Source of the DNA: Squalus acanthias
Taxonomy: Eukaryota
Assembly (NCBI GenBank): GCA_030390025.1
Contig: CM059431.1
Location: 154,010,001-154,074,000, forward strand
Direction: 5' to 3'
DNA length: 64,000 nt
Positions 23,060 to 63,404 of the stretch are shown one piece after another (position 1 is the stretch's first letter; every line of letters starts with the position of its first letter). The notes under the pieces are model-generated. The model was given only the letters and a program-made list of their open reading frames with translations, made no database searches and was not told where the DNA came from. Both the position numbers and the translations under genes were made by a program.

Positions 23060-23565
23060 TGACGGCGCTTCACTTAAGGGTAAGGCTTCTACACGCCTCA
23101 TCCAATTTTCCATCAGGGCCATGATTTCGATGCACTCAGTCATGATAAGCTCATGGTTGGAAAGGACCTGGTTCGCAAGAGAATGTGCTTGACGGAGGAA
23201 CATGGGGAGAGGTTCGGTGATGTCTAGCCAACCGCCAGTGTCCACAGTCTCAGCGCTGGGAGAAGGGAGTTGGACGGGAAGGAGATTGAGAAGATTAGCC
23301 CCCAGCGGGCGGCCTGGGCGGGAAGTTCGGGGGAAGAGTTGCATAATACAGTTGGGGTTGCAGCTCGTGAGGAGGCAGCAACGAGTGCCACGGTGGGCCT
23401 TTCGGAGGATGTCAAGAGAGGCACAGAGGGAAGCTGTAGACTTATCTAAGATGGACGGCAGCAGGAGAGTAGGAAGGTCGAAGAACAATGAATTGTTGGT
23501 GCAGGAATTTGGGAGTGTAGTGTATCCGAGATAGGAGAGATGAAAGGAGGCATAATGACAGGAGA
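23060..23565 (-). mobile_element. L2-type LINE 5'/endonuclease-start fragment
   Basis: ECIEIMALMENW (ALTETW-like); similar to 11860-11930. Confidence 0.55.
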
Positions 23566-24395
23566 GAAGGAAGGAATGAGTTTGCATTTACTGATGCTTT
23601 CTTCAAATATCTGTGCATTATTTATTAGCTCTTTAGGCAATCGATCGAGAGTTACAACTATTTCTAATTGCTCAGCAGCATCTGGTGATTCCAAGCCATA
23701 AATTTCGACCTCGATTCTCGGATCACCGACCGCAACCATCATATGTTAATTTTCTGGATATATGATAACATATGAATATTTGCTCATGATTTAGCTATGC
23801 TTTTGTGAGGTTTCGACTCGATTCATTAAACGACATTTGTGCACTGCCAGATAGAATCTCCAGAGCTCGACTGCTTCAATTCATATGTTCAACCACATTT
23901 CCACTTATCCGTAATCCCCTACGTCAGTGATCGACATTCACTTGTTATCCCAGACAATTTGTGAAAGACTCTTACTCATCTACAATTCCGTTTGCGGTTT
24001 CGAGCGTCTTAGCTCTGCAGTCTTCTTCAGAAACACTCTTTTATTTCTGGTCCATCCTCTCCCTTTGCTGTTGTCCCCAGATTATTGGTTCCTCTGCTCC
24101 GGACTCCAACAAAGTCGTTAGCACCACTGGCTGGAATCCGTTGCTATGTGCCTGCACTCTTTACTTCCAACTTAATCTAAACAACCTCCACATGTTGCAA
24201 CATCTAGGTCGTTTCTCTTAACTCTACGAAAAAGAGGCAGTTTAACTCGAAATTCCTGCTCTGTGAGGCGCCATTGGCCGTCTCACTGTTTGAAAGGCTC
24301 TAAAGAAAAGCTGCTGCTCTAAAAGTTAGTTCAAATTATTCATTGCTTCAAAGCAAATATTGTATTGTAACCTGTTCTCATTTACACTTGTACAG

Positions 24396-24565
24396 AAAAT
24401 TCAGATACTAAAATGTTACTAATGTTGGCGAGCTACACGGATATCCAGCTTGGAAGAATTATCGGCTGCTACCGTCAGAGACTAGAATCGTCAATTGAAG
24501 AATTCGTTGAAGCTGTTAGTCAGTCGCTCTTAGATGCAAACGTGTTTACTGAAACAATTCATAAG
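24396..24565 (+). CDS. NLR N-terminal cassette 1, exon A (NSDTKMLLMLASYTDIQLGRIIGCYRQRLESSIEEFVEAVSQSLLDANVFTETIHK)
   Basis: tacag acceptor (phase 1), AAG|gtatg donor (phase 0), open frame, conserved in three copies. Confidence 0.85.
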
Positions 24566-27500
24566 GTATGCTACATATATGTTGGAATTGTCTAAGTGTC
24601 CTCCTAAAATTTCGTCGGGTTGGTGGTAGATTATTCAAGTCGGTCTGGAACGGCATGTCTTTGCTGTTGTAACGGTTGTATTCTCTGGCGACTGTATATT
24701 CCCCGCGGAGGTGTGATGGCGCGAGGACTTGATAGCCATGGGGTGGATGGTAACAGCCTTCTCACGATCCACCATTTTACGTGCTCTTAGGTTACAGCTA
24801 ATGCCGTCTCAAAGGTCACAGAAGTTGTCGTTTTTAATGCATTAAATAACAAGAGAACAGCATCTCATGGTATAACCATGTGTTCATCGTGGAAGAATCC
24901 TCGACACAAATATCGTCAGCTGCTTCATCAATTATTTTTTTTCTGTCATACGGTCAGAATTTGGGCTGTTCGCTGATGATTGCAGTGTTCAATTCCATTC
25001 CCAATTCCTCAGCTAACTAAACAGTCCATGCCCGTATGCAACATTATCTGGTCAACATGCCAGTTTCGGTGGATAATTAGCAAGTAACATTTGTGCCGCA
25101 CAAGTGACAGGCAAAAACCATCTGCAGAAAGAGAATCTCTAATCAACTGATAATTCACTGGAAAACGTCTTGTAGTTAAGCTACTTACCTTGGCCGTATT
25201 TCTACAGGGATTCGGGTTACTGTTGTTTCTGTAATCGGACATAAATGGCATCCTATCCAAGGAGCAATTAATCCAAATTTCAGGATTGCAAGGAACACGC
25301 CAAGAAACAATGGCTCGTATTTTCCGATGCCTACGTGTGAGTACACGCGGTGTACATACCCGTAGGGACATCGGTAATGCCCGTTTCAGGCATGCGAAGC
25401 GCATGCGCTGAATATTCGGCATTTATGATCTGTGAAGAATCATCTTGGCAGATCGGACGCTTGCCCCAGAGAAGGGCCTCTGCGGGTGGAGATTTCCGCT
25501 GCAGGACATCCGCTCTTGAAAACACTTACAAATCGTACTCCTGGTAAAAACAGGCGCAAGACCTGCTTTTCCCAGCACAAGAGTTTAAAAAAGTAAAAAA
25601 TATATATATTTTTTCAATCATTAATAATTTTAAAGAACTTCCAAATAAGGTAAGTTTAATTTTAGCTCCATAAAAATCTTTAATAATTTTTTTCAAAACA
25701 TTAAATTTTTGTTTAAAATATTTCAATTAATATAAATGTTACTCATTTTAAAAACGCGACGCTTTTTAAAAATGTATTTATTGTTTTTGGGGTGATCTCC
25801 ATTCATACCTTTGACAGGTCTACCCTTCTATTCTCTCGCTTGTCCACCTATCTCAGGAGCTCACGAGCTTCGCAAGCTTCCCTGGGATAAGGTGGGCCCT
25901 GCGCATTTCTGCTGTGGACAGGCCCAGAATCGGAAATGGCTCCTCCTCGGGAGCCCTCAGGTAAGGGCGTAGATTTCTTCCCGATAGGAGGCATCCGCAC
26001 GCAAGAAGCCTCCTAACGGAAATTACGGGCCAAATATTGCAATGAATATTTGAATAAGATACCACTAGCAGCACAAGCATCACGCGTCCTCAGCAAAGAC
26101 CCAATGGATATCCTGGAGCTAGATAGAACATCTAATAGCCACATATATCTAATCTCAGGAAAATAAATTGACTGACATATTTAAAATAAGCTGTCGCTCA
26201 CGGCCGAGAAATTCTGACCGTTCTTTAGCAAAGGTGACGTGCATTTTAATTAAACGAGACGATCCGTGTGAGTCACTGCCGGTGGCACCAATTTCTAGAT
26301 CTTTCTACTGAACATATCCAAGTCGTTGCTTCCATTTCTTTTCTCCTTCCAACTTCACAGCATGGCTGATTCTACCTGCCTATCTACCAACTTCCCTGCC
26401 ACAGTTATTACTTTTAAGTAACAACCTCAAAAAATCTGCATTATTCTACGTCTCACCAAGCACTCGGAAAATTCATGCAGTCCATGGGTTACGAAACTTT
26501 AAGCCTTCACGTTCATTCTTCCGCCCAATGCTCAGGGACATCAACATTACCGGCATCTCCTGTCATGACAGCAATCATGTCCGATTTTAAATAAAATTCC
26601 GAGTCCCATCCTTGATGTCTATCTGATCTATTTTCTAATATTTCCTGATGTTATATAACACATATATTAATAAAGCATGGTGAATAAAGCTGACTAGTTG
26701 AAGCTAGCGATTGTCTGATGATGCTCTAGGAAGTTATAACATGAAGACATTAACACCTACGTGGTTAATGTAAGCGCACGTCTGGGAGCTTGGCGTTAAT
26801 GGGCCGGATATTCCGATCCTTACGGGTGTGTACGCGCTGTGTACACAACCGTAGGGACATCTAAAATGGCGGTTTTAGGCATGCCATCGAATGCATTGAA
26901 ATCCGTAATTTCCGATCTGTCAAGAATGCTCTTGACAGATTGGACGCCTAGCCTGGATAAGGTCCTCTGCGGACGGATAGTTCCACTTTCTGGAGAAACC
27001 CCGCCTGCAGAAAACCATCAGAAATCGGATGCCTGCTAAAAGCAGGGCTAAGGCTTGCTTTTACTATGTTTTAAGGGTGAATTCCATTCATATATTTGAC
27101 AGGTCTTCCTGTCAAAAGTATGAAGGGAGATTCCCTTCTCTGATTGGCTCCCTACGTGATCCCAGGGACGCTGCGAACCGCCATGCGCCTCTGGGATACG
27201 TGGGCCCTGCGCACCGGAAGTTTGGAGAGACCAAGCAACGGAACTCTGCGCCTCCCGGGAGCTCTCCGGTCCAGGCACAGATTTTTCCAGATCGCAGCCC
27301 TCCGCCCGCGGGCGGCCTGCGAAAGGAATTTTTGGGGCACTATGTTTTTGGGGTGAACTCCATTCATATATTTGACAGGTCTTCCTGAACAAGTGTATGA
27401 ATGCATTTTCCCTACTTTGATTGGCTCCCCATGGCTCACATGATCCCAGGCACCCTGTAATCAGCCTGTGCCTCTGGGCTAAGAGGGGCCTGCGCAAGTG

Positions 27501-30500
27501 GAGATTGGAGAGGCCCAGCATCGGAATCGTGTGCGTCCGGGGATCCCTAAGGTAAGGCCGTAGATTTTTCCAGATTGCAGAACTGCGCACCCGAGATTCC
27601 TGCAATCGAAAAAACTGGCCATTAACTATGAGGAGTTCATTATCATGCACAAGTGGTGGGTCACGAATTGAGGAAGCAATATATTGAAAAAATGGAAACA
27701 TTTTAGCGTGGGTGTCAGAGATATGGGTGACTTTAAATATCTAAAATATAGAAGTGATGTACGGGTGGAAGAGGGAGTGTGCTGTCTGCCAGTATCCAGG
27801 ACGTGAGATAGATGGGTACGTTTCCAGAACAACAGGGAAGGAATGAGTATTGGATCAATTTCTGCAAACGGATAACGGATATCTAAGAAGCAATGATATC
27901 ATTATAATTCAGATGAACAGTAAATCAAAGCAATATATATGTACAGGATAACAAATTTCAAAAATCAAGAACACATTAGCCCAGATATATTGGGACGGAA
28001 TGGATCAGATAATTCCGTCGGGAAGCAATACGAAGGTACCAAGTAGGAAATCAATGCGATACGATATATAGGAATTACAGGATAATAAAACGAGTGGAGC
28101 ACATACAAGAATTATTTGGATGTGCATAGAAAAGGAAATTAAAAGTAGATTTACAAATTGACTGTTGGGGGTTGATTATATAAATCAAATCAAAGAAACA
28201 TAGAGGTTAACGAGCAGAAGTTAAACCGTTGACAGTTTAAGAATTTGGTGATTGGCATGAGACAGTATTCGGGACAATGATCACATTTCATAAACACTTC
28301 AAATAAAATAGTTACTCATAAGACAGGACTATTCAGATATTCAAAGCAAATGGTTCATATAGAAGATGAAAGATTGACTGATAAGCTTGTGCTGCTGTTT
28401 CGATGAATGATACTTGAAATGAACGGCAGTCTAATTGCAATCAATGGTCAAAAAGTACGGACGCGTGTAACACGAGCCGACCATTCGCTATCAGCACTTG
28501 TCATGCGACTGGCCTATTCCAATTTCACCCGCATTGTTTTACAATCTGTGCAGTTTTAATTTCTAAAAGCACGTTGTGAGCTTTCCAGAACATTGCTGTT
28601 ACTAACAACAAATAATGCTTCATTTTGCACGAACCATATTCCTGAAATCTGACTTTTCCCCTTTTATTTGGCACTTAACATTATTTCATATCAGTTGAGA
28701 AAATTCAGCTTCCCTCGGTGACTCAACGCGAGTCCTCTCTATCTCTGCAACAACCTCCAGCCCTACAATCCTCCGTGATCTCTGTGCTCATCAAATTCTG
28801 AACCATTGCACAACCCCGATTCTCTTCACGCCACCAATGGTCGCCGTGTGTTGTGCTGCCTCGGTCCTAAACTCTGGAATTAACTCTGTAATCCTCTCCG
28901 GCCGTCTGCCATTCTCTGCTCTTTAGAGACGCTCCTTATAACTTATCTCGTTGACATAGATTTTGGTCACCTGATTGTGAGCTTTTATATTCATTCCTCC
29001 CATAAAGAGAGGGAGAAAGAAAACCGACGTTTCTTAGCTGATTTTGTAAAATACTTTTTTCAATATGATTTAAATATTTTTTTAGGAAATCAGAACACTT
29101 GCTGAAAGTCAGCGCAGAAACGGTGCTTCCCAACGCATTTTCGATACCGCGCTGGAAAAGGGAGCTCGGGGAGAAAGAACAATGTGGAACATATTTCTTC
29201 AACTGCAGAATACAAAACCCGAACTGAAAGCGACATTGTCAGAGATACAGAAGACAGGTACAGGGTCAAAACATGAGCTAGAAGGTAGGCGATTTCAATA
29301 TCTAATTGCAAAAGATCTCGTTTACTTTCAGAGTAAGAGAGTTCATTGTTTATGTCGAGGAACTTATTTTAAGTTAATATCCAGGAGGATGAAATTCTAA
29401 TTGTCGGGGACACACAATGGCCGGTAACATTTGCCGACAGTTAGACACACGCCCGATATTCAGCTCAATTCAAGTTTATTAGCGCGCAACATATAATAGG
29501 CGATGGATGCGATACCGCCTGTGTTTTGTCCTCGCCGAAAAACGGCCGGTATGGCATCTGCTGCCCGTTGTTTGCTCGGTCCTATGTTCCCATCCTTTGA
29601 CTCCAATAAAATTGCAAAGGCTGCGCTGTGCCCACCCAGAGCCGGTAATCAGGGAAATCTCTCAAATCAGGGAAACTGATGTAATCTTCGGCACTTTCAC
29701 AGTAATTGAGATCTTGAATTCCCCACTAAAATTTTGACGGAAAACGAAGGGTGTAACTGGATTGCAACAGCGTATTGAATTCTAAACAAATGTGACGGCC
29801 AGAAAATCTAATTTTAATTTTGTGCAGAGACAACTTTATTCATTTAAATAAAAATTAACATTATTCTGAAAATTTAATTATTTTAAAAGATTTTTCCTCC
29901 TTCTTTCTGCTTTGCATTTTCCCCATGTTAGAGCCCCAATATTTGCTCCGTTCGCTCAATCATTTTTTTAAATGTTAGAATTTTAACAGCTTATTCACTC
30001 CCGTGTTCGCTGTCTGTGAGAATTCTGCGTTTTGGTTGGATGCTTAGACAGCCTGTTGACTTCACAACAGCTTGCACTCGGGATTCCCAATGATGCTCCG
30101 TTGATTTGAATTACACTTCAGAAAACCTGATTGCGAGATCTTTGTGTGAAGCTTACTTTGTGGCCGCAGCAAATGCCTTTGATTCGCGCTGACCGCTAAT
30201 TCCGGGCCGTTCTTTATTTAGTATCTCTCAGGTCTTTCTACTTCCATCGATAGGCATTTTAGAATCAGTTACATTCAATTATGATTCCTACCAGCTATTG
30301 TCATGTTTCAGATGTGGTATTTGAGATTTAGTTATTATTTCAATTTGATATCAATAACTTTTTCCCAATGGTGTCTTCTTGTAATTGTTGTATTGATATC
30401 TATCAAATTTATTTTGAGTACATTTAGATTCACAGTATTTCAATTTGTCCGGTCCGTATCGCAGTTTACTTTTCCCAAGAAAGAAGGAATGAGCTTGCAA

Positions 30501-33500
30501 TTACTGTTACTTTCTTCAAATAACTGTGCATTTCTAATTAGCTCTTTAGGCTAACAAGCGACAGTCTCGACTATTTCTATTTGCTCAGCAGCATCGGGTG
30601 ATTCCAAGCAATAAATTTCGAATGGATTCTCACATCACCGTCCGCAACGATCATATTTTAATTTTCTGTATATATGATAGCATATGAATATTTTCTCGTG
30701 ATTTAGATACGCTTTTGTGAGTTTTAGACTCGATTCCTTAAACGACTTAAGGGCACTGCCATATAGAATCTCCAGAGCTCGACTGCTTCAATTCATCAGT
30801 TCACCCTCATTTCCACTTATCCATAATCCCATTCTTCGGTGACCTACATTCACTTGCTATCTCAGACAATTTGTGAAGACTCCTACTCATTTACAATTCC
30901 CTTTACGGTCTCGAGCGTCTTAATTTTACAGTCTTCTTCAGAAACACTCTTTTATTTCTGCTCCATCCTCTCCCTTTGCTGTGGTCCCCAGATTATTGGT
31001 TTCTCTGCTCCGGACTCCAACAAAGTCGTTAGCACCACTGTCTGGAATCCGTTGCCTTCGGCTTCCACTCTTTACTTCCTACTTACTTTAAACAACCTCC
31101 ACATGTGCAAGATCTAGGTCGTTTCTCTTAACTCTACGAAAAAGAGGCAGTTTAACTCTAAATTCCTGCTCTGTGAGGCGCCATTGGCCGTCTCACTGTT
31201 TGAAAGGCTCTAAAGAAAAGCTGCTGCTCTAAAAGTTAGCTCAAATTATTCATTACTTCAAAGCAAACAAAATATTGTAACCTGTTCTCGTTTACACTTT
31301 TAAAGAAAATTCAGTTCCTAAAATGTTACTAATGTTGTCGAGCTACACGGATATCCAGCTTGGAAGAATTATCGGCTGCTACCGTCAGAGACTAGAATCG
31401 TCAATTGAAGAATTCGTTGAAGCTGTTAGTCAATCGCTCTTGGATGCAAACGTGTTTACTGAAACAATTCATAAGGTATGCTACATTTATGTTGGAATTG
31501 TCGAAATGGCCTCCTAAAATTTGTTTGCCATACAGACTGCATTTGACACATTAGATCCCCTGTGACACCACCTCATTGTCTCAGTTGTATCTTGCTATGT
31601 CTTTGATATGCTGCCTTCCATGCTGACCTGATTGTTTCTCTGCCGAGGTGTGATGAAAGGCAATCAGAAAGATAAAATGTAGTCGTCCGACATTGTACGC
31701 TACACAGGCATTGTTCTCTGACTATATATGCTTTGTCGATTCGTATTCCTTCACTTCACCTGACGAGGAAGGCAGCTCCGAAAGCTTGTGATTTCAAATA
31801 AAACTGTTGGACTATAACTTGGTGTTGTGCGACTTCTCACTTTTGTACACCCCAGTCCAACACCGGCATCTCCGCATCATGGCAAATATAGAAAGGCAAT
31901 GGTTCATATAGAAGATGAATGATTGACTGATAAGCTTTCGCTACTGTTTCGATGAACGATATTTGGAATAAACGAAAGTCTCATTGCAGTCAATAGTAAA
32001 GAAATCCGGAGGCATGTTAAATGGGGCGCACATTCGCTATCAGCACCTTTCATGAGAATTGCCGATTCCAATTTCATCCGCATTGTTTATCAATCTGTGC
32101 AATTTGAGTTGCTGAAAGCAAGTTGTGAGCTTTCCAAAATATTACTGTTACTAACAACCAATAATACTTGATTGGACGAATCATATTCCTGCAATCGGAA
32201 GTTTTTCCCTTTTTTTGGCACTTTACCCTTAATTCCTCTATCAGTTGAGAAACTCCAGTTTCCCTCCGTGACTCAACAGTGGTCCGCTCTATGTTTGCAA
32301 ATCCCTAGAGCCCTACAGCCCCCCTTGATCTCTGTGCTCATCCAATTCTGGTCTTTTGCGAATCCCCGATTTTCTGCACGCCACCATTGGTAGACGTGTC
32401 TTGAGCTTTCTCGGCCCTAAGCTCTGGAATTCACTCCCTAATCCTCTCCGGCTCTCTGCCATTCTCTCCTTCTTTAAGGCGCTCCTTAAAACATTCCTCG
32501 TAGACGAAGATTTTGTTCACCTTATTTTGAGCTTTTCTATTCGTTCCTCTCATAAAGAGAGGAAGAAAATAACAGACGTTTCTTGTCTAAATGACTTGGT
32601 TGAATATGATTGCAATATATTTTTTAGCAAATCAGTAAATTTGCTGAAAGTCAGAGCAGAAACGATGCTTCCCAACTCATTTTCGATACCGTGCTGGAAA
32701 AGGGAGCTCGGGGAGAAAGAACAATCTGGAACATATTTCTTCAACTGCAGAATACAAAACCCAAACTGAAAGCGACATTGATAGAGATACAGAAGAGTGG
32801 TACAGCGATAGAAAATGATCTAGAAGGTAGGTGGCGTCCAACTCTAATGGCAAAAATCTTGTTTCCTTTAAGGAGTTGCCCTAGGTGCCCTTAACATTGA
32901 CTTCGGATCCCAAGAAGTCTCATGCCTTCAGGTGAAGCATTGGCAAAGAAACCTCCTGCTGATTACCACCTACCCCCTTCCTCAGTTGATGAATCAGTAC
33001 TCCTTCATGTTGAACACCACTTGTAAGAAGCACTGCGAGTAGCAAGGGCACAGAATGTACTCTGAGTGGGGGACTTCAATGTCCACCAAGAGTGCCTCGG
33101 TAGCACCACTACTGACCGAGCTGACCTAGTGCTGACGGACATAGCTGCCAGTCTGGTCCAGCGACAGGTGGTGAGAGATTCAGAACAGACCTAGCAGCTC
33201 AAAACTGGGCATCCATGAGGCGCTGTGGGCCATCAGCAGCAGCAGAATTGTATTACATCACAACCTGTAACCTCATGGCCCAGCATATCCCTCACTCTAA
33301 GATTACCATCAAGACATCGGACCAACCGTGGTTCAATGAGGAATGCAGAATAGCATGCCAGGAGCAGCACCAGGCGTACCTAAAAATAAGGTGCTTACCT
33401 GGGGAAGCTGCAACACATGCATGCTATTAAGTGGAAGCAGCATGCTGTAGACAGGTCTGAGCGATCCCACAATCAACGGACCAGATCAAAGCTCTGCAGC

Positions 33501-36500
33501 CCTGCCACATCCAGTCGTGAATGGTGGTGGACCATTAAACATCTAACGGAGGAGGAGGCTTCATGAATATCCCCATCCTCAATGATGGTGGTGCCCAGCA
33601 CGTGAGTGCAAAAGACAAGGCTGAAGCGTTTGCTACCATCTACAGCCAGAAGTGCCGAGTGGATGATCCATATCGGCCTACTCCTGAGCTCCCCACCATC
33701 ACAGAAGCCAGTCTTCAGCCAATTCAATTCACTCCACGTGATATCAAGAAACGGCTGAGCGCACTGGATACAGAAAAGGCTATGGGCCCCGACAACATCC
33801 CGGCTATCGTGCTGAAGGCATTTGCACAAGAATTAGCTGTGCATCTAGCCAAGCTGTTCCAGTACAGCTACAGAACTGTATTCTATCCGACAATGTGGAA
33901 AACTGCCCAAGTATGTCCTCTCCACAAAAAGCTGGACAATTTCAGTCTGGCCAATTACCGCCTCATCAGTCTTCTCTCAATGATCAGCAAATGATGGAAG
34001 GTGTCAGCACAGTGCTATCAAGCAATACGTAATAACCAATAACCTGCTCACTGATGCCCAGTTCAGGTTCTGCCAGGACCACTCGCCTCCCAACCTCATT
34101 ATAGCCTTGGTACAAACATGGACAACGGAGCTGAATTCCAGAGGTGAGGTGAGAGTGTTTGCCCTTGACATCAAGGCAACATTTGACCGAGTGTGGCATC
34201 AAGGAGCCCTTGTAAACTGAAGTCAATGGGAATCAGGGGGAAAACTCTACACTAGCTGGAGTCATACCTAGCATAAAGGAAGATAGTTGTGGTGGTTGAA
34301 GGTCAATCATCATAGCCCCAGTAATTACTGCAGGAGTTCCTCAGGGCAGTGATTTGGCACAACTATCTTCAGCCGCTTCATCAATTAACTTCCCTCCATC
34401 ATAAGGTCATAAATGGGGACGTTCGCTGATGACTGCACAGTGTTCAGCGTAAGTCACAACTCCTCAGATAATGAAGCAGTCCAAGCCCGCATGCAACAAG
34501 ACCTGGACGACGTTCCGGCTTGGGCTGATAAGTGGCAGTTAACATTCGCGCGCACAGAAGTGCCATGCAATGAATCTCTCCAACAAACTAGAGTCTAACC
34601 ACCGCCCAATGACATTCAACGGCATTACCATCGTCGAATTCCCCACCATCAACATTCTGGAGGTCACCATTGACAAGAAACTTAACTGGACCCGCCACAT
34701 AAAAATTGTGGCAACAAGAGCAGGTCACAGCCTAGGTATTCTGCGGCGAGTGTCTCACCTCCTGACTCCCCAAAGCCTTTCCACCATCTACAAGGCACAA
34801 GTAAGGAGCGTGATGGAATACTCTCCACTTGCCTGGATGAGTGCAGCTCCAACAACACTCAAGAAGCTCGACACCATCATGGAAAATGCTTGATTGGCAA
34901 CCCATCCACCACCTTCAACATTCACTGCCTCCACCACCGGCATACCGTGGCTGCATGTGTACCATCTACAAGATGTAATGAAAGCAACTCGCCAAGGCTT
35001 CTTCGGCAGCACATCCCAAACCACGACCTCTTCCACCTTGAAGGACAAGGGCAGCAGGTGCATACGAACAGCGCCACCTCCAAGTGCCCCTCCAACTCAC
35101 ACACCATCCTGAGTTGGAAGTATATCGCCGATCCTTCATCCTCGCTGGGTCAAACTCCTGGAACTCCCTACCTAACAGCACTGTGGGAGTACCTTTACCA
35201 CACGGACTGCAGTGGTTCAAGAAGGCAGCTCACCACCACCTTCTCAAGGGCAATTCGGTATGGGCAATAAATGCTGGCCTTGCCAGCGATGCCCACATCC
35301 CATAATTGAATTAAAAAAATCTCTCAGTCCTTTCTACTTCCATCCCACTGCATTTTAAAACCAGGAGCATTCAATTATGAATCCTTAGGCATTTTCATAT
35401 TTCAGAAATGGTTTTAGAGATTCTGTTATTATTTTAATTCGAGATCAATAACTATTTTCCCAATGGTGTGTTCTTATAATTGGTGTATTGATATCTATCA
35501 AAGTTATTTTGAGTACGTTTAGTTTCACAGTATTTCAATTTCTCGGTTCCATATCTTAGTTAATTTTTCGAAGAAAGAAGGAAAGAACTTGCATTTACTG
35601 TTTCATTCTTTAAATGTATGTATATTTATTAGCTCTTTAGGCAAACAAGCGAAAATCACGACTATTTCTAATTGCTCAGCAGCATCTGGTGATTCCATGC
35701 AATAAAGTATGACCTGGAATCTCAGGTCACCGTCCGCAACCATCATATTGTTAATTTTCTGGATATATATTAAAATATGAATATTTGCTCCTGCTTTATC
35801 CACGCTTCAGAAATTAAGACTCGATTCCTCAGCGATCTTTGTGCACTGCCAGTTAGAAACTCCAGAGTTCGACTGCTTCAATTCAAAAGTTCACCATAAT
35901 TTCCAGTTATCCGTAATTCCCTTCGTCAATGACCTACATTCAATTATTATCTCAGTTCATGTGTGAAATCCTCCTACCCAACTACAATTCCCTTTAAGGT
36001 CCGGAGCGTCTTAGCACCATGTTTTCTTCAGATGCACTTCCATAACTCTAGTCCATCCTCTTCCTTTCCTGTGTCTCCACATTATTGGTTCATCTGCTCC
36101 GGACTCCAACCAAGTCTTCAGCACCACTGGCAGGATCTCCGATGCTATGGGACTCCACTCTTTACATCTTACTTACTTTAAATAACCTCCACATGTTGCA
36201 AGATCTGGGACGTATCACATAACGCTAACAAATAGAGGTAGCTCTTTTCGGCGCCATTGCCGTCTCACTGCTTGAAGGGCTCTCAATAAACGCTGCTGCT
36301 CTTGAAGTTAGTTCAAATTATGCATTGCTTCAAAGCGGGTACTTTATTTCAACCTGTTCTCATTTACACCTTGACAGTAAATTCAGATACTAAAATATTA
36401 CTAATGTTGGCGCGCTGCACGGACATCCAGCTGGGAAGAAATATCGTTTGCTGGCGTCAGAGACTCGAACAGTCAATTGAAGATTTCGTGGAAGCTGTCA

Positions 36501-39500
36501 GTCAGTCGCTTTTAGATGCAAACTTGTTTACTGAAACAGATCACGAGGTATGTTATATATATGTTGGAATGAAATAATGTTAAATGAGTCGTACGATTGA
36601 CTGTTTAGAATCTTATTTTTCTTTCGTATGGTAGTAGCAAAGCAAATTAAATGTCAATATCTAAGTCAGATATCCAAGCCAAAGTTTCCGGTGTAACAGC
36701 ATGGATATCTTGTAGGCTGCCTGCGAATTTCCTCTGAGTGGAGTGCTCAATGATGTGCTCCAGGGTCTGATTCGGAGCTCCGCATTCGCACGATTGGGAT
36801 GCTGTCATCTTCCATCTATGGAGAAGGCGGCAGCATCTACCATGACCGGTTCTGAGGCGGTTGATGATTATCCACTTTTTGCGAGGAAGGTTTGATCCTT
36901 CTGGTTATACCGTGGGTCCTTTATAAGGTCTCCATTCCGAATGTCACAGTTCTTCCAAGCATTTTGCCATTGGTTATCAAGGCTGAAGGGCTTCAGCGAC
37001 TGTCCAATATGTCCTTCTAGATTTGAGCTGGGTTGGTGGTAGCTTGTTCAATTCGGCCTGGCCCGGCATGTCTATGCTGGTGTAAAGGTTGTATTCTCTG
37101 GGATGACAACTTGAATGAAGAAAGCCTTTTCACGGCCAAACCTTTTACTTGATCTTAGATTACAACGAATGTCGTCTCAAAGTACACCAAACTTGTCATT
37201 ATATCGACCTCCCAGTGATGGTAACAAACTAAGCTAATCGAACGGTCGTCTCCACAAGCAAACACAACTCTTTACAATAGCTGTATTCCGTGAAATCCAA
37301 AGATATAAACAGTAGGCTAAGCTCTACTGGTTTAACTTGAATAATAACACTGAACTACTTGTCCGGTGCCAATTTAAACAACATTTGAAATGGTCTTCTG
37401 CGAACTCTCCCTGGTTAATTATTTTTGACTGAAGTTTTCAATTAATGCATTAATAATAAGAGAACATCCTCTCATGCTTTAACCATGAGATCACCGTAGC
37501 GGCATCCTCGGCCCAAATATCGTCAGCTGCTTCATCAGTGAATTTTTAATTCGTTTATAGAATGTGGGCGTCACTGGCAGATCGGCATTTATTGCCCTTC
37601 CTAAGTTGCCCTTGAGAAGGTGGTGGGGAGCCGCCTTCTTGAACCGCTGCACTCTGTGTGGTGATGCTACTCCCAAAGTGTTGATTGGGAGGGAGTTCCA
37701 GGAATTTGACCCAGCAACGATGAAGGATCGGTGATATACTTCTAAGAGATGTCGGGGGGGCGGGGGGGTGGGGGGGTTGGAACGGACCTTGGAGGTGGTG
37801 GTGTTCCTATGCACCTATTAATCCAAATTCAGGATTGCAAGGAAGAAGCAAAGGCACATTATAATGAATAACTGTTTTAGACACCAGTTACAGAGCAGGC
37901 ATCACGAGTCCTCAGCTCAGACCCAATGGAAATCCTGGAGCAAGATAAAACCTGTAATAGCCCCATATATCTAATCTCAGGTGAAGAAATTAATTAACAT
38001 ATACAAACTAAACTGTCGGTCACGGACTAGAGTTCTGTCCGTTTTTTATCAAAGCAGCCTTGCGTTCCAGCTGAAGTATAAGATTCGTGTGAGTCACTGC
38101 CGGTGGCACGAATTTCCAGAACATTCAACTGAACATTACCAAGTCCTTGCTTCCATTACTTTTCTCCTTCCAAGTTCACTGCATATCTGATTCTACTTGC
38201 ATTTCCAACACCTTCTCTGCCACAGTTCATCCAGCCCATGGTTTACGCATCCTTTTGCCTTGACCCCAGGGCAGCTCAGGCCACGCCCGTTTTTCCGGCC
38301 CATTGTTCAGGTACATCAACAATGCCGGCCTCTTATTTCAAGACTGCTATAATGCCCCATTTAAAAAATAACCCATAGTCCCATCTGTGATGTCTACCTG
38401 CCCTCTCTCCGAATATTTCCTCGAGTTAATTAATATATATGTTAATAAAGTAACGTGAATAATGCTGGTTAGTTGATACAAAAGCAAAATACTGCAGATG
38501 CAGAGAATCTGAAATAAAAATAGAAAATGCTGGAAATACTCAGCAGGTCAGGCAGCATCAGTGGAGAGAGAAACAGAGTTAACGTTTCAGGTCGATGACC
38601 CTTTGTCACAACTGGAATAATCTGGAGATGGAACAAGTTTTTAAGCAAGTGCAGGGACAGGGAAAGGGGGGAGAGTAGGAAAGAACAAAAGGGGAGTTCT
38701 GTGAAAGGATGGAAGGCAGGAGAGAGTAAGAGACAAAAGGGATGATGGTGCAAGGCAAAAGGAGATGGTAATGGGACAAGTTAAGAAACAAAATATGGCT
38801 CCAGATGAAGTGTAAATGGCACTGGCAGAATCAAAGACAGCTGCCATGTGAGAGAGAAATTGTCTGATGCTGCTCGAGGAAATTATGATATGAAGACATT
38901 AACAGCTACGTGGGGATGGGCAGGGTTGGGAGCAAGGAGCTAAAATGTCCTTTTACCAAAAAGGGAATAGTTTTTAAACAAAATAGGGAAGAGTTTTATT
39001 AACATATTCAACTGCAGCACGAAAACTCAGGGTGTCAGAAACATGTGTGACTTTAAATATCTAAAATATGGAATTGATGTACGAGTGCAAGTGAGGGTGT
39101 GCTATCTGCTACATGTCCAGGACGTTAGATCAATTGGGACGGTTTCAGGAGAAAAACAATGGATGGGTATTGGATCCATTTCTGCACACACAGAGCTATT
39201 CATAAGACAGGGCTGTTCAGATCAAGAATTTAAATGGTTCCTATAGAAGATGATGGATTGACTGATAATATTTTGCTACTGTTTCGATGAATGATACTTC
39301 GAATTAACGAATGTTTCATTGCAGTCAATGGTAAAGAAATGCGACCGCATGTAAAACGGGCCGCCCATTCACTATCAGCAACTTTTCTGCGACTGACCGA
39401 CTCCAATTTCACCCACATTGATTATCAATCTGTGCAATTTGAGTTTCTGAAAGCACGTTGAGAGCATCCAAAATATTACTGTTATTAACAACAAATAAAG

Positions 39501-42500
39501 CATGATTTTGACTTAATCATATTCGTGCAATCGGACTTTTTTTCCTTTTATTTGGCACTTTATCCTTATTTCATATCAATTGCGAAAATCCAGATTCCCT
39601 CAGTGACTCAACGCTGGTCCTCTCTATCACTGCAACCTTCTCCAGCCCTACATAGAAACATAGAATATATGAGCAGTAGTAGACCGTTCGGACCCTCGAG
39701 CCTCCTTCGACATTGAATAAGATCATGGCTGATCTTCCAAATTCAGTACCCTGTCCCTGCTTTCTCCCCATATCCCTTGATCCCTTTAGACTTAAGAAAT
39801 ATATCTAACTCCTTCTTGAATATATTTAATGAATTGGCCTCAACTGCCTTCTGTGGTAGAGAATTCAACAGGTTCACCAATCTCTGGGTGAAGAATTACA
39901 TCCTCATCTCAGTCCTAAATGGTTTACCCCTTATCCTTACACTGTGACCCCTGGTTCTGGACTCCCCCACCATCGGAACATCCTTCCTGCATCTAGTCTG
40001 TCTAGTCCTGTTAGACTTTTAAAAGTTTAAATAAGATACCCTCTCATTCTCTAAACTCTAGCGAATATAAGCGTAATCGGAACAATCTCTCCTCATATGT
40101 ATTTCCTGCCATCCCAGGTATCAGTCTGGTAAATCTTCGCTGCACTCCCTCCATGGCAAGAACATCGTTCCTCAGATAAGGCCACCTAAACTGCAGACAA
40201 TACTCAAGGTGTGGTCTCACCAAGGCCCTGTAAAACTGCAGCAAGACATCCTTGCTCCAGTACTCCAATCCTCTCGCTATGAAGGCCAACATACCATTTG
40301 CCTTCTTAACAGCCTGCAGCACCTGCATGCTTACCTTCAGCGACTGGTGCACAAGGAGACTCAGGTCTCGTTGCACTTCCCCTTCTCCCAGTCTATTGCC
40401 GTTCAGATAATAATTTGCCTTCCTGTTTTTGCCACCAAATTGGATAACCTCGCATTTTTCCGCATTATACTGCATCTGCCATTCATCTGCCCAAACACCC
40501 AGCCTGTCCAAATCCTACTGGAATTTCTCTGCATCCTCCTCACAGCACACACGCCCACCCAGCTCTGTGTCGTCTGCAAACTTGGAGATATTACATCTAG
40601 TTCCCTCGTCTAGATCATTAATATATATTGTGAATAGCTGGGTTCCTACCACCAATCCCTGCGGTACCCCACTAGTCACTGCCTGCCACCCGGAAAAAGA
40701 CCCGTTTATTCCAACTCTTTGCTTCCTGTCTGCCAACCAATTCTCTATTCAAGTCAGTAGCTTAACCTCATGCCATGTGCTTTAACTTTGCACGCTAATC
40801 TCTTATGCGGGACCTTATCGAAAGCCTTCTTAAAATCCAAATACTCCACATCCACTGGTTCTCCTTTATCTATTCTACAAGTTACATCCTAAAAAAATTC
40901 CAGTAGATTACTCAAGCATGATTTACCTTTTGTAAATCCATGTTGAGTTTGTCCGATCCTGTCGCTGTTTTACAAGTGATCTGCTATTACATCTTTTATA
41001 ATGAACTCTGGCATTTTCCCCACTACCGATGTCAGGCTATAATTCCCCGTTTTCTCTCGACCACTTTTTTTAAATAGTGGGTTTACATTAGCTATCCTCG
41101 AATCCATGGAAACTATGCCAGAGTCTATAGAATTTTGGAAGATGACCAGCAATGCATCTACTATTTCTAGGGCCACTTCCTTAAGTACCCTTAGGATGTA
41201 GATTATCAGGCCCTGGGGATTTATCGGCATTCAATCCCGTCAATTTCCCTAACAACATTTTCCTGCAAATACTGATTTCATTCAGTTCGTCCCTCTCATT
41301 AGATCCTATGTTCTCCGACATCTCTGGAAGTTATGTGTGTTCCTTTGTGAAGACAGAAACAAAGTATGTATTTAATTGTCAGCCATTTCTTTGTTCCCCA
41401 TTATAAATTGCCCTGATTCTGACTTCAATGGACCTACGCTTGACTTCACCAATCATTTTTCTCTTCACACATCTATACAAGCTTTTACAGTCAGTTTTTA
41501 TGTTCCCTGAAAGCTTACTCTCATACTCTATTTTCCCCCTCTTAATTAATCCTTTTGTCCTCGTTTGCTGAACTCAAAAGTGCTACAATCCTCAGGTTTG
41601 CTGCTTTTTCTGGCCAATTTGTATGTCCTCCGTGAATTCTGTGCTCATCCAATTCTGCCCTTTTTGCTCATGCTCGATTCTTTTCACGCCACCATTGGCC
41701 GAGGCGTATTGAGCTTTCTCGGCCCTAAGCTTTGGAATTCACTGCCTAATCATCTCTGACTCTCTGCATTTCTCTCCTCATTTAAGATGCTCCCTAAAAC
41801 TTATCTCGTTGACAACGATTTTGGTCACCTGATTGCGAGCTTTTCTATTCATTCTTCTCATAAAGAGAGGGAGAAAGAAAACAGTCGTTTCTTAGCTGAT
41901 TTTGTAAAATACTTTGTTCAATATGTTTACAATATCTATTTTTTTAGGAAATCAGAACGCTTGCTGAAAGTCAGCGCAGAAATGATGCTTCCCAACTCAT
42001 TTTCGATACCGTGCTGGAAAAGGGAGCTCGTGGAGAAAGAACATTCTGGAACATAATTCTTCAACTGATGTATTCAAAACCCAAGCTGAAAGCGACATTG
42101 CTAGAAATACAGATCAGAGGTACAGGGGCAGAAAATATTCTAGAAGGTAGGTCATGTCCAAATCTAATGGCAAAAGATCACGTTTACTTTCAGCGGAGCA
42201 AAATTCATTATTCATGTCGATTAACTTATTTTAAGTTAATGCCCTTGAGGATAAAATCATAAGTGGGCGGGGACACAAAACAGGTGAAATCGCATTTGCC
42301 GACAGTTACAACACACGCCAGATATTCAGTTCAATTCAAGTTTGTTCCGGCGCAGCGTACAATAGGTGATGTTTGCGATACCGCCTGTATTATGTCCTCG
42401 CCGAAAAACGGCCGAGATTACATATCTTCCGTTGACTTCAGTAGAACTGCATAGGCTGTATTGTGCCCACCCTCCACACCCCAACCCCCAGAGCCGGCAA

Positions 42501-45500
42501 TCAGGGAAATCTCTCACATCAGGGAAACTGCTGAAATCTTCGGCTCTTCACAGTAATTGCACTCTTAAATTCCCCAATAAAAGTTAGACTGAAAGGCATT
42601 GGGCGTAAGTGGGTTTCAACAGCCTATTGGCTTTCAAACAAAAGTTATGGGCCTGAAATTCTAATTTTAATTTTTAGCAGAGATCAATTTTATTCATTTT
42701 AATAAAATTAATATTTTTAGGAAACTTTTTCTTCAATGTTTTTTAAATTCTTATTTCAGGATTTCATTTTCCTCATGCGAGAGTTTCAATGTTTGTTTTG
42801 TTCGCTCTAACATTTAAAAAAAAGTTTGATGTTTAAGAGCTGACTCACTTCCTTGTTCACTGTCTGTGAGAATTCTGCGCTTTGATTGGCAGCTTAGATA
42901 GCCTGTTGACGTCACAGCAGCTTGCACTAGGGCATCCCGATGATTTTCCGTTCATTTCGATTACGCTTCAGAAAACCTGAACTTCTTCACACAGAGATTG
43001 CGAGACCTTTGTTTGAAACTATCTTTGGGGCTAGCCGCAAACGACTTTGCTTCGCCACTGACACAAATTCTGGGCCATTGCTTATTTAATAGTGGCATCT
43101 CTTAGGCCTTTCTACTTCCATCCCACTGCATTTTAGAACCAGGTACATTCAATTATGAATCCTTCAAGCTATTGTCATGTTTCAGATATGGTATTAGAGA
43201 TTCTGTTATTATTTTAATTTGATATCCATAACTATTTTCCCAATGGTTTGTTCTTGTAATTGGTGTATTGATTTCTATCAAATTTATCGTGACTATCTTT
43301 AGATTCACAGTATTTCCATATCTTTGTTCTCATATCCCAGTTTAGTTTTCGAAGAAAGAAGGAAAGAGCTTGCATTTACTGATGCAATCTTTAAATCACT
43401 GAACATTATTTATTAGCTGTTTAGGACAAACAAGTGAAAAACATGACTATCGCTAATTGCTCATAAGCACATGGTGATTCCAAGGCATTAACTTTGACCT
43501 GGAGTTTCAGATCACCGTACGGAACCATTATAGGTTAATTTTCTGGATATATGATTCCATATGAATAATTGCAGTGTTTTTATTCACGCTTTTGTGAGTT
43601 TTAGACTCGATTCCTCAAACGACCTTTGGACACTGCCCATTCTAAACTCCTGTTTGTCCAGAGCTTCAATTCAAAAATGAACCCCATTTCCACTTATCCG
43701 TAATCACTTTCATCAATGATCTACTTTCACTAGTTATCTCAAATCATTGATGAAATTTTCCTACTCTACGGCCTTGACCACCTTTTCTCTACAATCTTCT
43801 TCACAACCGCTCTATTTCATTCCTGTCGCTCCTCTCCTCTTGCTGTGAGCCCCAGATTATTGGATTCTCTGCTCAGGACAATACGTCAGCGCCACTGGCT
43901 GGAACTCCGTTGCCGTGGGCCTCCGCTCTCGACTTCTTAATTACTTTAAACAGCCTCCACAGTGCCAATACGTTGAATTTACTTTATTTTATCGTTCTTA
44001 ATTTATTGATCAAAAACATAGTCTCTCGTTCCCCTGTGTGTAACGTTGCGTCGAATATCTTCTTTAGCGCCCGCATTTCAATCTCTCTTGGTTCCCTTTT
44101 TAACCTTTGAAAAAAAGTCTTATTGATGATAAAAAAAATTCTGGAATGCTTTCTCGGATCACCAATGCACCCCGCAATTCTTCGCAAACTCCAGTTACTT
44201 TAAAACAGTGCAGCTAGAGTCTTCTCTTATATAAACAAGTCATGTAATTCTATTGCTCATCAGCACCGAGCTGTACTGGCTTCTTGGTACAAGCAGTTTT
44301 GAGATTAAGGACCTCGAACATGTTGCGATGTTCCATCCATGGATTCCTTCCATTTTCTCTGTGCAGATTTCTCGGCCCGACACGTTACCTCTGCTTCTGT
44401 CCCTGAATGTTACTGCAATGGTGGATCTGCACTGGTGTATTACAGGCAGCCTTTCTATCACAACACACTTGCTCTTATGGACCGTTCGTTGTTAATTCCT
44501 TTGCCACGAAACCTGTCCCCTTTCTTTCCCAACGGCTCTTAAAATCTCTCTCCTAGTCTATATCTCAGATTCCGACGTCAACATTAAACCCGCAGCTTGT
44601 GTCCTGCTTTAATATTTTATAAATATTTTCATATGTGGAGATGAAGCTCCAAGGGGTGAATTGCTGATGTCTGCTGAAGCAAAGAATTCCGGCAGTGACT
44701 ATTCTTCTGATTCTAACTTCATATTGAGGAATACGGATCGATATCTAGTAATTCTTTCAAAGTTACAATGGAAATTGCAAATATTTATCTGGCAAATTTC
44801 TCGTCATGAATGTCTTTTGTAATTTTCAAAACTTTACTACAGGAGGCTCGTGAACCCGAAGTAAATGGCCCAGAATCCTTAATTCTGCTTCATGAAATTC
44901 GCTGATATTTCAGAAAAGTATGATCCGTCAGGCTACTGTATTTTTCTTATGGTGTCTGGGCACCAAAGGGCAAAATAATTAAAAGTTGACTCGTTACTCA
45001 CAACGTTCATAGGATATTTTTCTTGCATATTAGATTTCCTTCATTGCATTGACAGTTGAAATATTTTTCTCCTGAGTCAGAATTGCTATGATAATAAAAT
45101 TGTTTATGGTTTCATATTCAAGAGATAGAACTTCAGCACAAAGCCACTCTCCTAAAACAGTCTCAGAAGCTGAGAGTTACCATCACAATCACTGGAAGAA
45201 AAGAGACGCCTCGGTCCTGTTCGCTCGATGAGAGTTACACTGGCGTAAGGATTGTTGCTTCCCTGCGTGAGCGGGCATTGGTAGAAAATGAACTGAAGGC
45301 CCGGGGGAGAGACCGCGAAGAGATACAGAGGGAAAATGTCATGAATGAGCATGAAGTTCAACTCGATCAACTTTTGAGAAGCAGTTCCCCTAAAGTAGAC
45401 AGTTCTGGGACAACTGCGGTAATTGGGGCTGCAGGGATTGGGAAAAGCACCATGATACAGAAGATAATCCGTGACTGGGCCACAGGAAAAATATACCAGC

Positions 45501-48500
45501 AGTTCAAATTTGTCTTTCATTTTAACTTTACACAATTAAATTTAACCAAAGTCAGAACAAATCTAACTGCTCTGATCCTGGATTCCTACCCTTACTTCGA
45601 AAATGCGTTCGGAACATCTGTGGGAAGAACCCGGAAACATACTGTTTATATTTGATGATTTTGACCAATTTGATCAAACCATCGATTTCACCGATGTTCA
45701 GAGAAACAACGACCCCCAAAATCAGTGTTTCGATTCCGAATGCTGCTGTTCGGTGTCAGACATCGTGCGCTGCCTCATTCAGGCAGAGTTACTGAAAGGC
45801 TGTTCAGTACTGATCACAAGCCGGCCGTGGAATCTGCTGTCTCTGGCAAAGGCAAACATAAATCAAACGTTCGAAATCCTAGGTTTCACCTCTGAGAAAA
45901 TAAAACGATATTTTCGCCGTTATTTTGGAGATGAGCAGTTTGCGACAGATGTAATCGAGTACATTGAGCAGAATGATACCTTGCACACCATGTGCTATAA
46001 CCCTCTGTACTGTTCAGTCCTCGCTTCATTATTAGAGTCACAGCGGTCACAAGGAGCGGGGGAGAGACCATTGTCCGTCACAACCAGCACACAAGGTGTT
46101 CTCCGCGTACGTCACATGTCTTTTAGAGAAATGCGGCAGTGACGCGGAAACATCTCGCGATATGTTGCAGAAACTAGGCCCTTTGGCCTACGAAGGCATT
46201 TGCAAGAAAACCGTTGTGTTAAAAGCCGAACAATTAAATTGCCACAGACTCAAACTTTCAAATGTTATCTCTGCGTTTGTGATGCAGATTCGCGACGAAG
46301 ATCTGTGTAGTGTTGACTACACATTCACTCATTCCGTCGTGCAGGACTTTGTCGCTGCACTTATGAAAAGTCTAAGCACACCAGGAAATGGACAGACACG
46401 ATTGCTCAATGAAGTGTATACGTGCACTGACGAGAGATTCAATATTTTTTCACGCTTTCTTGTCGGTCTCTCCTCACGGATTTCGACTGATCAGCTTGAA
46501 AGTCAAATGGGAGATTTTCCTTCTGAAGCAACCGCGTGTATGTCGCAGTGGCTCACAGAACATGTCAAAAGACGTGTTCAGAACTTAGAAGATGGGCAAA
46601 GCCAAAGGACACTCTTAAAGATATTGCATTATTTCCTTGAATTTGGAGACATAAAACTGATGAAGGTCGCAATAACACCGATAAAGACAATGAAATTCAC
46701 ACAGTGTCCCTCTTAAACCTTCTGACTGTGCGGTTCTGTCAAACGCACTAATGGCCGTTGAACTGATAGAAGAGTTGAATCTCAGTACCTGTGGGATACA
46801 AGATGAAGGCATCCATCAGCTGAAGCTCGTGCTACACAAATGTAAAATACTCAGGTAATTCAGCGAATACGTTCAATATCATTATCAACAACTAATGTTT
46901 TACTGGCATCAGGGGTAATATTAGGTAAAAGTAAAAACATTCACTGAATTCGATCAATTAATGAGCACATTCTCTCATTCCACTCCCTGCTGTGCTAAAT
47001 GGCACCCTAAGAGACAGCACTGGAGTGTCTGTTCAGGTAATGCCTGAAAGTGCTGTGGTGCTCATTTAATTAGATCAGATTGGATGTTGTCAACATTACA
47101 TCCAAATCAAGCGCACTCTTTGCACCACGGAGGAGTCTGGATTAATCATTAAGATATATTCCCCTACACTTTAGTCATGATATATTAGATCGCTGTTGGG
47201 AAAAAAAAAAACATTTCACAGATTCACAGAATCTTACAGCATAGAAGGAGGCCGTTCATCCCATCCTGTCTGTGCCGGTTTTCGAAAGAGCTATACAATT
47301 AGCCCCACTCCCTTGCTCTTTCCCCATAGCCCTGCATATTTACCCCCTTCAAGTGTTTATACAAGTCCCTTTGATAAACTACTATTGAATGTGATTCCAC
47401 TAGCCTTTCAGGCAGAGCATTCCAGATCATAACAACTCGCTCCATAAATGTGTTTCCTCATGTCACCTCTGGCTTTTTAGACAATTAGCTTCAATCGGTG
47501 TCATCTGGTTACTGACCATGTGCCAATGGAACATTGCCAGCAACAAAATATCTGTTTTATTTTAAACTGTAAACAAATAACATTGTTATATTTTGCAGTT
47601 TCATTAATTTACAGGCGAGCTTTAACTGTATTGTTCTAAATTTTTCAATCCATCGATCAGATCAGATTTGCTGAATCAATAATGTTATTGTTCAGACTCA
47701 ATGGTGTCAAGTGATGCAGTCAGATGTGGGTTCACGTCTGCGATTCCTCAAATTCTGAGTATTCTTTCCAGCCGCACTGCTGTGCCAAAACATCATCAGA
47801 GGTCCGGAGGGAAGAAAAGTGAGAGGGATTTTCATCCCAATTGCTCTTATGCACATTCGAGCGATATGTTACAATCCCCATCAGTGGATTCTCCAATAGA
47901 CTTGGGCATCATTTAATGACATTTGTGAACCTCATTGCATCAAATAGATAACTTTCCTGAAATAGAGACAAGATCAAAGGGACGGACTCTAATTTTAACA
48001 TAAATTCTCCTATTAATGAAGAGAATCGTCCTGTGAGGGACATATGTCGTGGATTCCTCTCCGTTACAGACCACGAGTTTATAGCATTTAATCTGCCAAC
48101 CACTCAGTGCCTACATTAAATGTTATAATTTTAAATGTATGTTGAAATCATGATCGCGGGCATTAGAGTAACTTCCGGTAAAAGAACTACACTTTGTGAT
48201 CGTCACTGATTTGAACGCATGCGCTATTACTAAATAATGTTGAGCAAATCATAGAATTGAATTTTGATTACAGGTCTTATGTTCGCGTCTTGGATGCCCA
48301 AAGTGTCCCACGTTAAATGCATTAAAGAATTACGAATATTTCCTATGTATTGCATTGCTACCTATTAATTATTGATTTTGGTTATTCCTGTTCAGACTCA
48401 ATGAGAATAAACTGGGAGATTCGGGAGTGAAACGGCTCTCTGCCGTTCTGAAGAAAAATGACTGTAAAATACAGAGACTGGAGTGAGTAATTATGTTTAA

Positions 48501-62479: not shown

Positions 62480-63404
62480 TTATCAAAAATTGTCTTGCGG
62501 CAGTTATCGGATTGGCCTCCCCGCAAAATTTCCGCGCACCATTCCAGCCAGTAAATGTAAAAAAATCACTTTTATTAAGTTTCGGCCACTCACAGCAGGG
62601 TCCCGGTAAAGCGAGGAACGTCAAGATGAAGAATCGGTGCCTAAGTGGAGACAGGAGGGAAAAGCTAAAACAATGGGGCAGAGATTCGGATCGCAGGCTT
62701 CCCGCGGGTGCAAGCCCCCTAACTGCACTTACCCAGCGCGCTTGCCGTTGTGCTGTGGGCCCGCGTGGGATTCCGATCCTGGGCCTCCTCATGCTGCCGG
62801 TGTGCTGTGCTTGCGTATCCCAGGGGCACATTTAGTTCGAAGCGTTCCCTGGGATCACGTGGGCCATGGAGAGCCAATAGGAGCAGGGAATCTCCACTCA
62901 TAGATTTGACAGGAAGACCTGTCAAATCTATGAAATAGAGATCGGCCACAAAACCTTCAACCTTTACTAAAACTTCAAATACATTTAAAAAAAAATCACA
63001 TTTCTAAAATAACTATAAATTACAAAAATTAACTATTTTAAACAAAAATTTTATTTTTTGAAAACATTAATTAAAGTTTTTACGGGGCTAAAAATAAACT
63101 TACCTTTCTTTATAGTATTTAAAAAAGATAAACCTTTGGAAAAAATGTTTAATTTTACTTACTTCACCACTTACCTTGTTAAAAGCAGGCCTTGCTCCTG
63201 CTTTTTCCCCACGCAGCTGCTGGGACTTAACCTCACAGAGTAGCCTTAAAAAAAGCGGAAGTCCGCTGCGTACCCGCTGCCTCTCCGGCGCACGCGATGA
63301 CCTCCGAACCCCTTCCTTCAAGGGAACGCAAGTTCCGCTTTCCAGCGCATGCGCAGTGCATGCGGGAAATCGGTACTTTCGTTGGGTCAACGGGTGAGTG
63401 CACT
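62480..63404. mobile_element. PIF/Harbinger-type MITE (family of 12776-13517), ends degraded or deleted
   Basis: Internal homology (CACGTG, CCAAT, hairpin, AT-rich core, GCGCATGCGC); right TIR missing. Confidence 0.7.

Follow-up and report, generated by a model that had tools for sequence, protein, structure and literature searches.

Three tandem two-exon cassettes, predicted to encode CARDs, lie ahead of the NACHT exon in an NLR gene of Squalus acanthias

A 64-kb window of the Squalus acanthias genome (contig CM059431.1, positions 154,010,001 to 154,074,000) contains an NLR gene on its + strand, whose coordinates are given below as positions of that window. The reading we favor, and consider probable, is that this is a shark-type NLR with three tandem two-exon, phase-1 modules, each predicted to encode a CARD and each duplicated along with its introns, of which at least one is spliced to the next. 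The product would likely be a three-CARD receptor, with a copy number that likely changes by unequal exchange.

The cassettes consist of exons A1 (24396..24565) and B1 (29086..29284), A2 (31306..31475) and B2 (32628..32826), and A3 (36378..36547) and B3 (41948..42146). Exon A1 encodes an extra N-terminal helix and the first half of CARD unit 1, while B1 encodes the second half plus a linker; A2 is 97% identical to A1, and B3 is the second half of pair 3. The first-pass annotation had described three pairs of 170 + 199 nt, open and bounded by GT-AG, and 6/6 exons indeed have one of these two lengths, lie between an AG acceptor and a GT donor, and are open. Its claim that the phase-1 ends of the cassettes match a phase-1 NACHT exon also holds when the phases are recomputed: exon A enters in phase 1 and leaves in phase 0, exon B does the reverse, and phase 1 is also that of the acceptor at 45123, where the NACHT exon begins. 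A sequence pattern noted earlier, LEKG-x7-W-x2-F, is found in B1 and B2 but only in part in B3, where I replaces F. A1 carries in-frame ATGs, and one isoform model of Scyliorhinus torazame begins at the equivalent place. Searching the window by tblastn with the cassette units turned up no cassette exons beyond the six.

The three units share 75–84% protein identity with each other. At the nucleotide level, the copies differ by 7–14% in exons and by 10–21% in flanks, where indels also occur, and this divergence rules out duplication during assembly as the origin of the copies. Self-blast shows that the introns flanking the cassettes were duplicated along with the exons. Given the degree of identity between units and the duplication of the introns, we interpret the cassettes as segmental duplications of several kb rather than assembly echoes. 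In a simulation of neutral decay, which assumed 8–10% substitution and 0.4–1% indels per site per copy and treated any indel as fatal, three intact cassettes survived in 1, 0 and 0 of 5000 runs.

Evidence that cassettes are joined in transcripts comes from contigs of four coded runs, mapped to 29000-48990. This repeat-rich 20 kb stretch begins downstream of A1, and the rows listed for it comprise 15 of 1193 joints and 12 of 71 indels. None of the runs is on record as RNA; X5 and X7 were guessed to be RNA runs, and we accept them as such because their joints are exon-exact. In X5 record 10, 32727-32824 is joined to 36376-36545 with 0 mismatches and with a 3.5 kb intron removed. The joint, slid by 2 nt on a shared AG, links the 3' end of B2 to A3, and it supplies one link of the A-B-A-B-A-B-NACHT chain of spliced exons on which the first-pass annotation had staked its proposal. 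X5 record 15 is an exact match to a 192-nt leucine-rich repeat (LRR) exon further downstream (48750..48941), including both of its boundaries. Depth is similar for B2, A3 and the 192-nt LRR exon (53, 49 and 33), with 0 differences each. The exon A in X5 record 9 departs from A2 at 9 positions (A1 and A2 differ by 5) and is preceded by 482 nt for which the window pieces listed include no match, and which may be a leader or another cassette. The absence of X5 cover at 45008-45674 is uninformative.

By its NACHT domain, winged helix, HD2 and C-terminal LRRs, the gene is an NLR. One exon (45123..46854) encodes the NACHT, winged helix, HD2 and first LRR, with Pfam matches above cut-off for NACHT (55 and 54 bits), NOD2_WH (36.8) and NLRC4_HD2 (39.5). 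Walker A is intact and Walker B reads DDFDQ, not the canonical hhhhDGhDE. Three downstream exons align at 57–72% with LRR regions in relatives: an 87-nt exon of phase 2-2 (48396..48482), the 192-nt exon and the last coding exon (49187..49272), which places the stop where relatives have it. The match to Pfam LRR_6 is weak (E 0.007). At position 46823, within the NACHT exon, all four mapped runs have G and the window has A, possibly an assembly error or a private allele.

For the 123-aa unit, the predicted fold is that of a CARD preceded by one additional helix. The model, made with AlphaFold2, is of a relative: residues 178-298 of P0015, a segment 51% identical to unit 3 (pLDDT 87.8). When this model was compared against VIA, 25 of the first 27 rows were, by title, CARDs or proteins with a CARD (Z 8.0–10.6), although Z values below 13 may be generic for helical folds. 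Among the structural matches are the CARDs of NLRC4 (Z 10.5, root-mean-square deviation 2.6, 88 aligned), RIG-I and MDA5, and residues 3-12 of the model form the extra helix before the CARD. The first death domain comes behind the CARDs, at rank 32 (Z 7.5), and pyrin domains appear at ranks 43 and 50 (Z 6.2 and 5.9), without a PYD match in Pfam; we therefore rejected both of these identities. P0015 matches Pfam CARD with 40.4 bits, above the cut-off of 23.9, a PDB profile search returns mostly CARDs, weakly (best E 0.001–0.004), and the best Atlas score, 0.77, serves as a lead only. Because the fold class agrees across methods, we assign the unit to the CARDs, which supports the earlier suggestion of a death-fold domain and narrows it to this family. 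A model of a four-unit relative shows separate confident domains and no confident packing between units (pTM 0.39), a result that is uninformative on real contacts; as modeled, the CARD units would be independent beads on linkers.

Relatives were drawn from the best 120 of 195 NACHT matches, the closest of which are 'NLRP3-like' models from sharks and rays. A profile built on the window's three units detects the domain in 67/120 of them. A single copy was found in 64 (sharks, rays, chimaera, bichirs, sturgeons, frogs, caecilians, newt and lizards), two copies in one frog model with two NACHTs, three in Mustelus P0013 and five in Scyliorhinus torazame P0015. The first-pass annotation had thought the domain lineage-specific; its occurrence in 67/120 relatives across cartilaginous fish, bichirs, sturgeons, amphibians (frogs included) and lizards led us to reject this idea. 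Because it is found from sharks to amphibians and lizards, the CARD unit must be old and widespread. Tandem arrays ahead of NACHT, by contrast, appear in this sample to be a shark and ray trait. A wider search with the unit retrieved 199 proteins, and among the 150 listed were ray models with 2–3 units and multi-unit transmembrane receptor models, one of them labeled as lamprey. A homologue search with exon B alone gave 0/46 candidates. Two C-terminal CARD units follow a long repetitive region in P0130 and P0132, an arrangement like the tail of Chiloscyllium P0006 and P0007.

In a quick NACHT tree of 62 rows, made without bootstrap and leaving out P0124 because too little of it aligned, the gene sits within a clade of 27 rows, all from sharks and rays (SH-aLRT 100). 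Its 26 relatives there carry 0 units in 16 cases, some of which may be incomplete gene models, 1 unit in 8, 3 in one and 5 in one. Cassette number thus varies among the genes of this clade (0, 1, 3 or 5), as had been proposed.

How might this variation have come about? In a cassette tree of 69 rows of 100 residues or more, built on just 123 columns, the copies of Mustelus cluster with one another (100/99), as do the three of the window (98/70), while 4/5 S. torazame copies group and one stands apart. Since copies group by gene, the tandem expansions appear to be separate. Within the window, the flanks preceding exon A differ by 0.11 between copies 1 and 2 and by 0.19–0.20 in the other pairs, whereas those preceding exon B differ by 0.19–0.21 in all pairs. 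Such mosaic flanks would be consistent with conversion or unequal exchange. Two further intron copies lie outside the present array, both on the + strand. One, of the junction type and homologous to the intron after B exons, lies upstream of A1 (23565..24192) and is cut off at 23565 by a repeat. The other, a fourth inter-cassette copy (43097..43961), ends ~200 nt before the expected exon A site, and no exon A follows. A simple duplication to three copies cannot yield both, which suggests a fourth cassette, either since lost or located beyond the window's upstream edge. The mosaic flanks and the spare junction-type intron are the kind of trace that the accordion-like unequal crossover envisaged in the first-pass annotation would leave. 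The introns are full of LINE-like repeats, and upstream, amid similar repeats, are long GT-rich tandem tracts at 6100-7520 and 21390-22790, with periods of 27, 23 and 65 nt.

It could be that copy number simply drifts by way of phase-1 modules in a repeat-rich cluster, with extra CARDs of no distinct function, but we consider this unlikely. Drift would account for the 16/26 clade relatives whose models lack the unit, for the LINE-like repeats that fill the introns, and for the ratio of non-synonymous to synonymous substitution (dN/dS) in exon B, which is near 1 in 2/3 pairs. It does not readily explain why six exons remain open with intact splice sites while their flanks are 11–21% diverged and have indels, nor why dN/dS in exon A is ~0.4 (p 0.04–0.09). 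A further point against drift is the excess of amino-acid change between B1 and B2, which differ by 19.5 non-synonymous versus 0.5 synonymous changes (Fisher p 0.009–0.051) although their upstream flanks are ~0.2 apart. These changes are mostly in the first helix and linker. They are suggestive only of positive selection on exon B, the signal amounting to 20 changes in one of several comparisons.

Several observations weigh against our reading of the locus as a functional three-CARD receptor gene. The most direct is the NACHT exon itself, which in the assembly contains three successive +1 frame changes, at ~45605-45611, 46092-46095 and 46708-46711. The X5 contig over this exon shows 19 differences in 1063 nt, compared to 0 in 460 nt for other exons (p 0.002), and hence it possibly derives from another allele or a paralogue. 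Gap positions inside the RNA contigs that span the breaks are not among the listed rows, and none of the 15 listed joints, out of 1193, represents B1-A2, A3-B3 or B3-NACHT. As for the fold, Pfam CARD gives no match on the window's own half-domain exons, and the model is that of the relative rather than of the window's own spliced unit. The AlphaFold and Foldseek route suggested earlier gave a divided answer: the top five rows against PDB are CARDs, and none is a match at E ≤ 0.001. The modest Z values, the small number of columns in the cassette tree and its stray S. torazame copy, and the small B1/B2 sample belong on the same side.

One rival possibility is that the gene is a pseudogene, in which case the frameshifts would be real, the RNA would come from an intact allele or near-identical paralogue, and the cassettes would be recent or kept for a CARD-only decoy transcript. 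Decoys of this type are familiar in ICEBERG and CARD16. Besides the frame changes and the 1.8% by which the RNA NACHT contig differs when other exons are identical, there are CARD-only models among the relatives (P0121, P0122, P0123 and P0125) and a dead NACHT fragment at 63395-64000 of the same strand. The latter is the decayed 3' portion of a second such exon from an NLR: it shares 79% identity with 46314-46921, is broken by stops and frameshifts, and has a repeat in place of its 5' part. Nevertheless, we regard a pseudogene as unlikely. B2, A3 and the 192-nt LRR exon match the RNA perfectly and at similar depth. X5 record 14, which covers the second and third breaks, has 1063 nt over 1065 window nt with 2 gaps, and X7 record 29, which covers the first, has 176 nt over 177 window nt with 1 gap. 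The RNA contigs are thus shorter by exactly the number of breaks spanned, making an intact transcript likely. Moreover, no in-frame stop appears when the breaks are read through with X, and 2/3 breaks are in short homopolymers. The probable sources of the NACHT frameshifts are errors in the assembly or variants confined to this haplotype.

In the scheme of the first-pass annotation, splicing would include or skip cassettes, so that isoforms could carry anywhere from 0 to 3 CARDs. This is permitted by the phase symmetry and would fit P0015 and P0121, two predictions apparently from one S. torazame gene that differ by a unit, but it looks improbable, given that the sole cassette junction seen (B2 to A3) is consecutive and that 9 RefSeq isoform sets, each with zero or one unit, include no internal whole-unit skip. 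The 15 listed joints of 1193 include none between cassette exons and so do not bear on skipping.

Returning to the three-CARD receptor, its clade has other peculiarities. Neither these relatives' transmembrane N-termini nor the altered Walker B and NACHT frame changes of the window gene figured in the first-pass annotation. Walker B is DD or DN, never DG, in all 16 clade relatives that could be read (10/26 were not read by the pattern). A transmembrane-like stretch precedes NACHT in 10/26 clade relatives, compared to 3/35 outside the clade, and several clade members show a signal peptide, short ectodomain, helix, basic residues and a tyrosine motif; all such calls are based on hydropathy only, with no dedicated predictor. 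In the window, we found no convincing exons for a signal peptide or transmembrane segment (best E 0.5–0.6). The first 24 kb are mostly repeats, and such exons may lie outside the window.

The transmembrane relatives fall into several designs. In P0013, P0014, P0021, P0022, P0008 and P0009, all shark and ray models, a transmembrane helix and a basic stretch precede 0–3 CARDs and NACHT-LRR; most have a signal-peptide-like start and several a tyrosine motif, making them putative type I membrane NLRs of jawed vertebrates. CARD units come before the transmembrane-like stretch in P0015 of S. torazame (four units) and P0125 of Cetorhinus maximus (two), and these units would face outward or into a lumen, provided that models and topology are correct. 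In P0083, P0086 and P0088, from reedfish and bichir, and in P0161, a transmembrane helix is found before the same CARD unit and NACHT; P0083 and P0088 carry Pfam families of the immunoglobulin (Ig) type, and the four may represent a separate membrane-NLR design or fused gene models. Finally, P0188 (Lethenteron reissneri), P0205, P0223, P0229, P0241 and P0260 are transmembrane receptors with several related CARD units in the cytoplasm and a cysteine-rich ectodomain that is TNF-receptor-like by eye. A literature search for multi-CARD transmembrane receptors of the P0188 type found nothing.

Vertebrate NLRs are usually taught as cytosolic proteins with one effector domain, or two in the case of NOD2. 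We raise, tentatively, the possibility of an undescribed class of membrane-anchored vertebrate NLRs, to which this gene would belong, with a signal peptide, short ectodomain, one transmembrane helix, a variable run of CARDs, an altered Walker B and few LRRs. Unequal exchange and positive selection would diversify CARD number and surface in this class, so that signaling valency would differ from receptor to receptor; each would act as an inflammasome scaffold at the plasma membrane or endosome.

Known CARD signaling offers a guide to what the extra copies might do. Tandem CARDs in NOD2 and RIG-I raise avidity and seed CARD filaments. By analogy, NACHT oligomerization or membrane clustering would bring together several CARDs per chain with higher avidity, and the clustered CARDs could then seed the CARD filament of a caspase or adaptor. 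Divergence of exon B may give different copies different partners, and symmetric phase would let cassette number change at the DNA level. The number of CARDs per receptor is likely tuned within this family. Gene-to-gene differences in CARD number offer a ready-made set of variants with which to ask how the threshold of CARD-filament signaling depends on valency.

Genes with 3 and 5 copies are already in public models, and the three copies described here are a modest case; what this locus adds is direct RNA evidence of tandem cassettes spliced together. The public models, Mustelus asterias XP_078087540.1 (3 units) and Scyliorhinus torazame XP_072354261.1 (5 units), are automatic 'NACHT, LRR and PYD domains-containing protein 3-like' predictions. 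They resemble the window gene in having a unit ~50% identical, a tandem layout before NACHT and membership of the same NACHT clade, and differ in that their expansions are separate and that they have a transmembrane-like stretch, none of which was found in the window. The related UniRef entry A0A401NYT5 is named 'CARD domain-containing protein'. A search for published accounts of tandem-CARD or transmembrane shark NLRs, with subscription journals outside its coverage, found none, and the accessible portions of two further sources make no mention of sharks (10.64898/2026.04.26.720791, PMC9680068). As far as its accessible text goes, work on the whale shark describes few true NLRPs in sharks and an expanded 'NLRP-related' NLR family proposed to activate inflammasomes, and does not mention N-terminal CARDs, tandem cassettes or transmembrane helices (PMC8455134). 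The window gene probably belongs to this broad family. Variation in CARD number bears on how sharks, with few true NLRPs (PMC8455134), build inflammasomes.

Membrane-bound NLRs have been described in invertebrates, namely in anthozoans (PMC3879445, PMC5094078) and, as AjNLRC4, in a sea cucumber (PMC8699970). Judging from the accessible parts of these reports, they combine NACHT with N-terminal transmembrane segments, as do 10/26 relatives in the shark and ray clade, and have 3–5 helices, or Ig domains without CARD or LRR. The shark models, in contrast, combine CARDs with a signal peptide, a short ectodomain and a single helix. NOD2 and RIG-I/MDA5 resemble the window gene in that several CARDs precede the nucleotide-binding sensor. 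Their CARD pairs are ancient, fixed and dissimilar, whereas the copies in the window gene are recent (75–84% identical) and variable in number.

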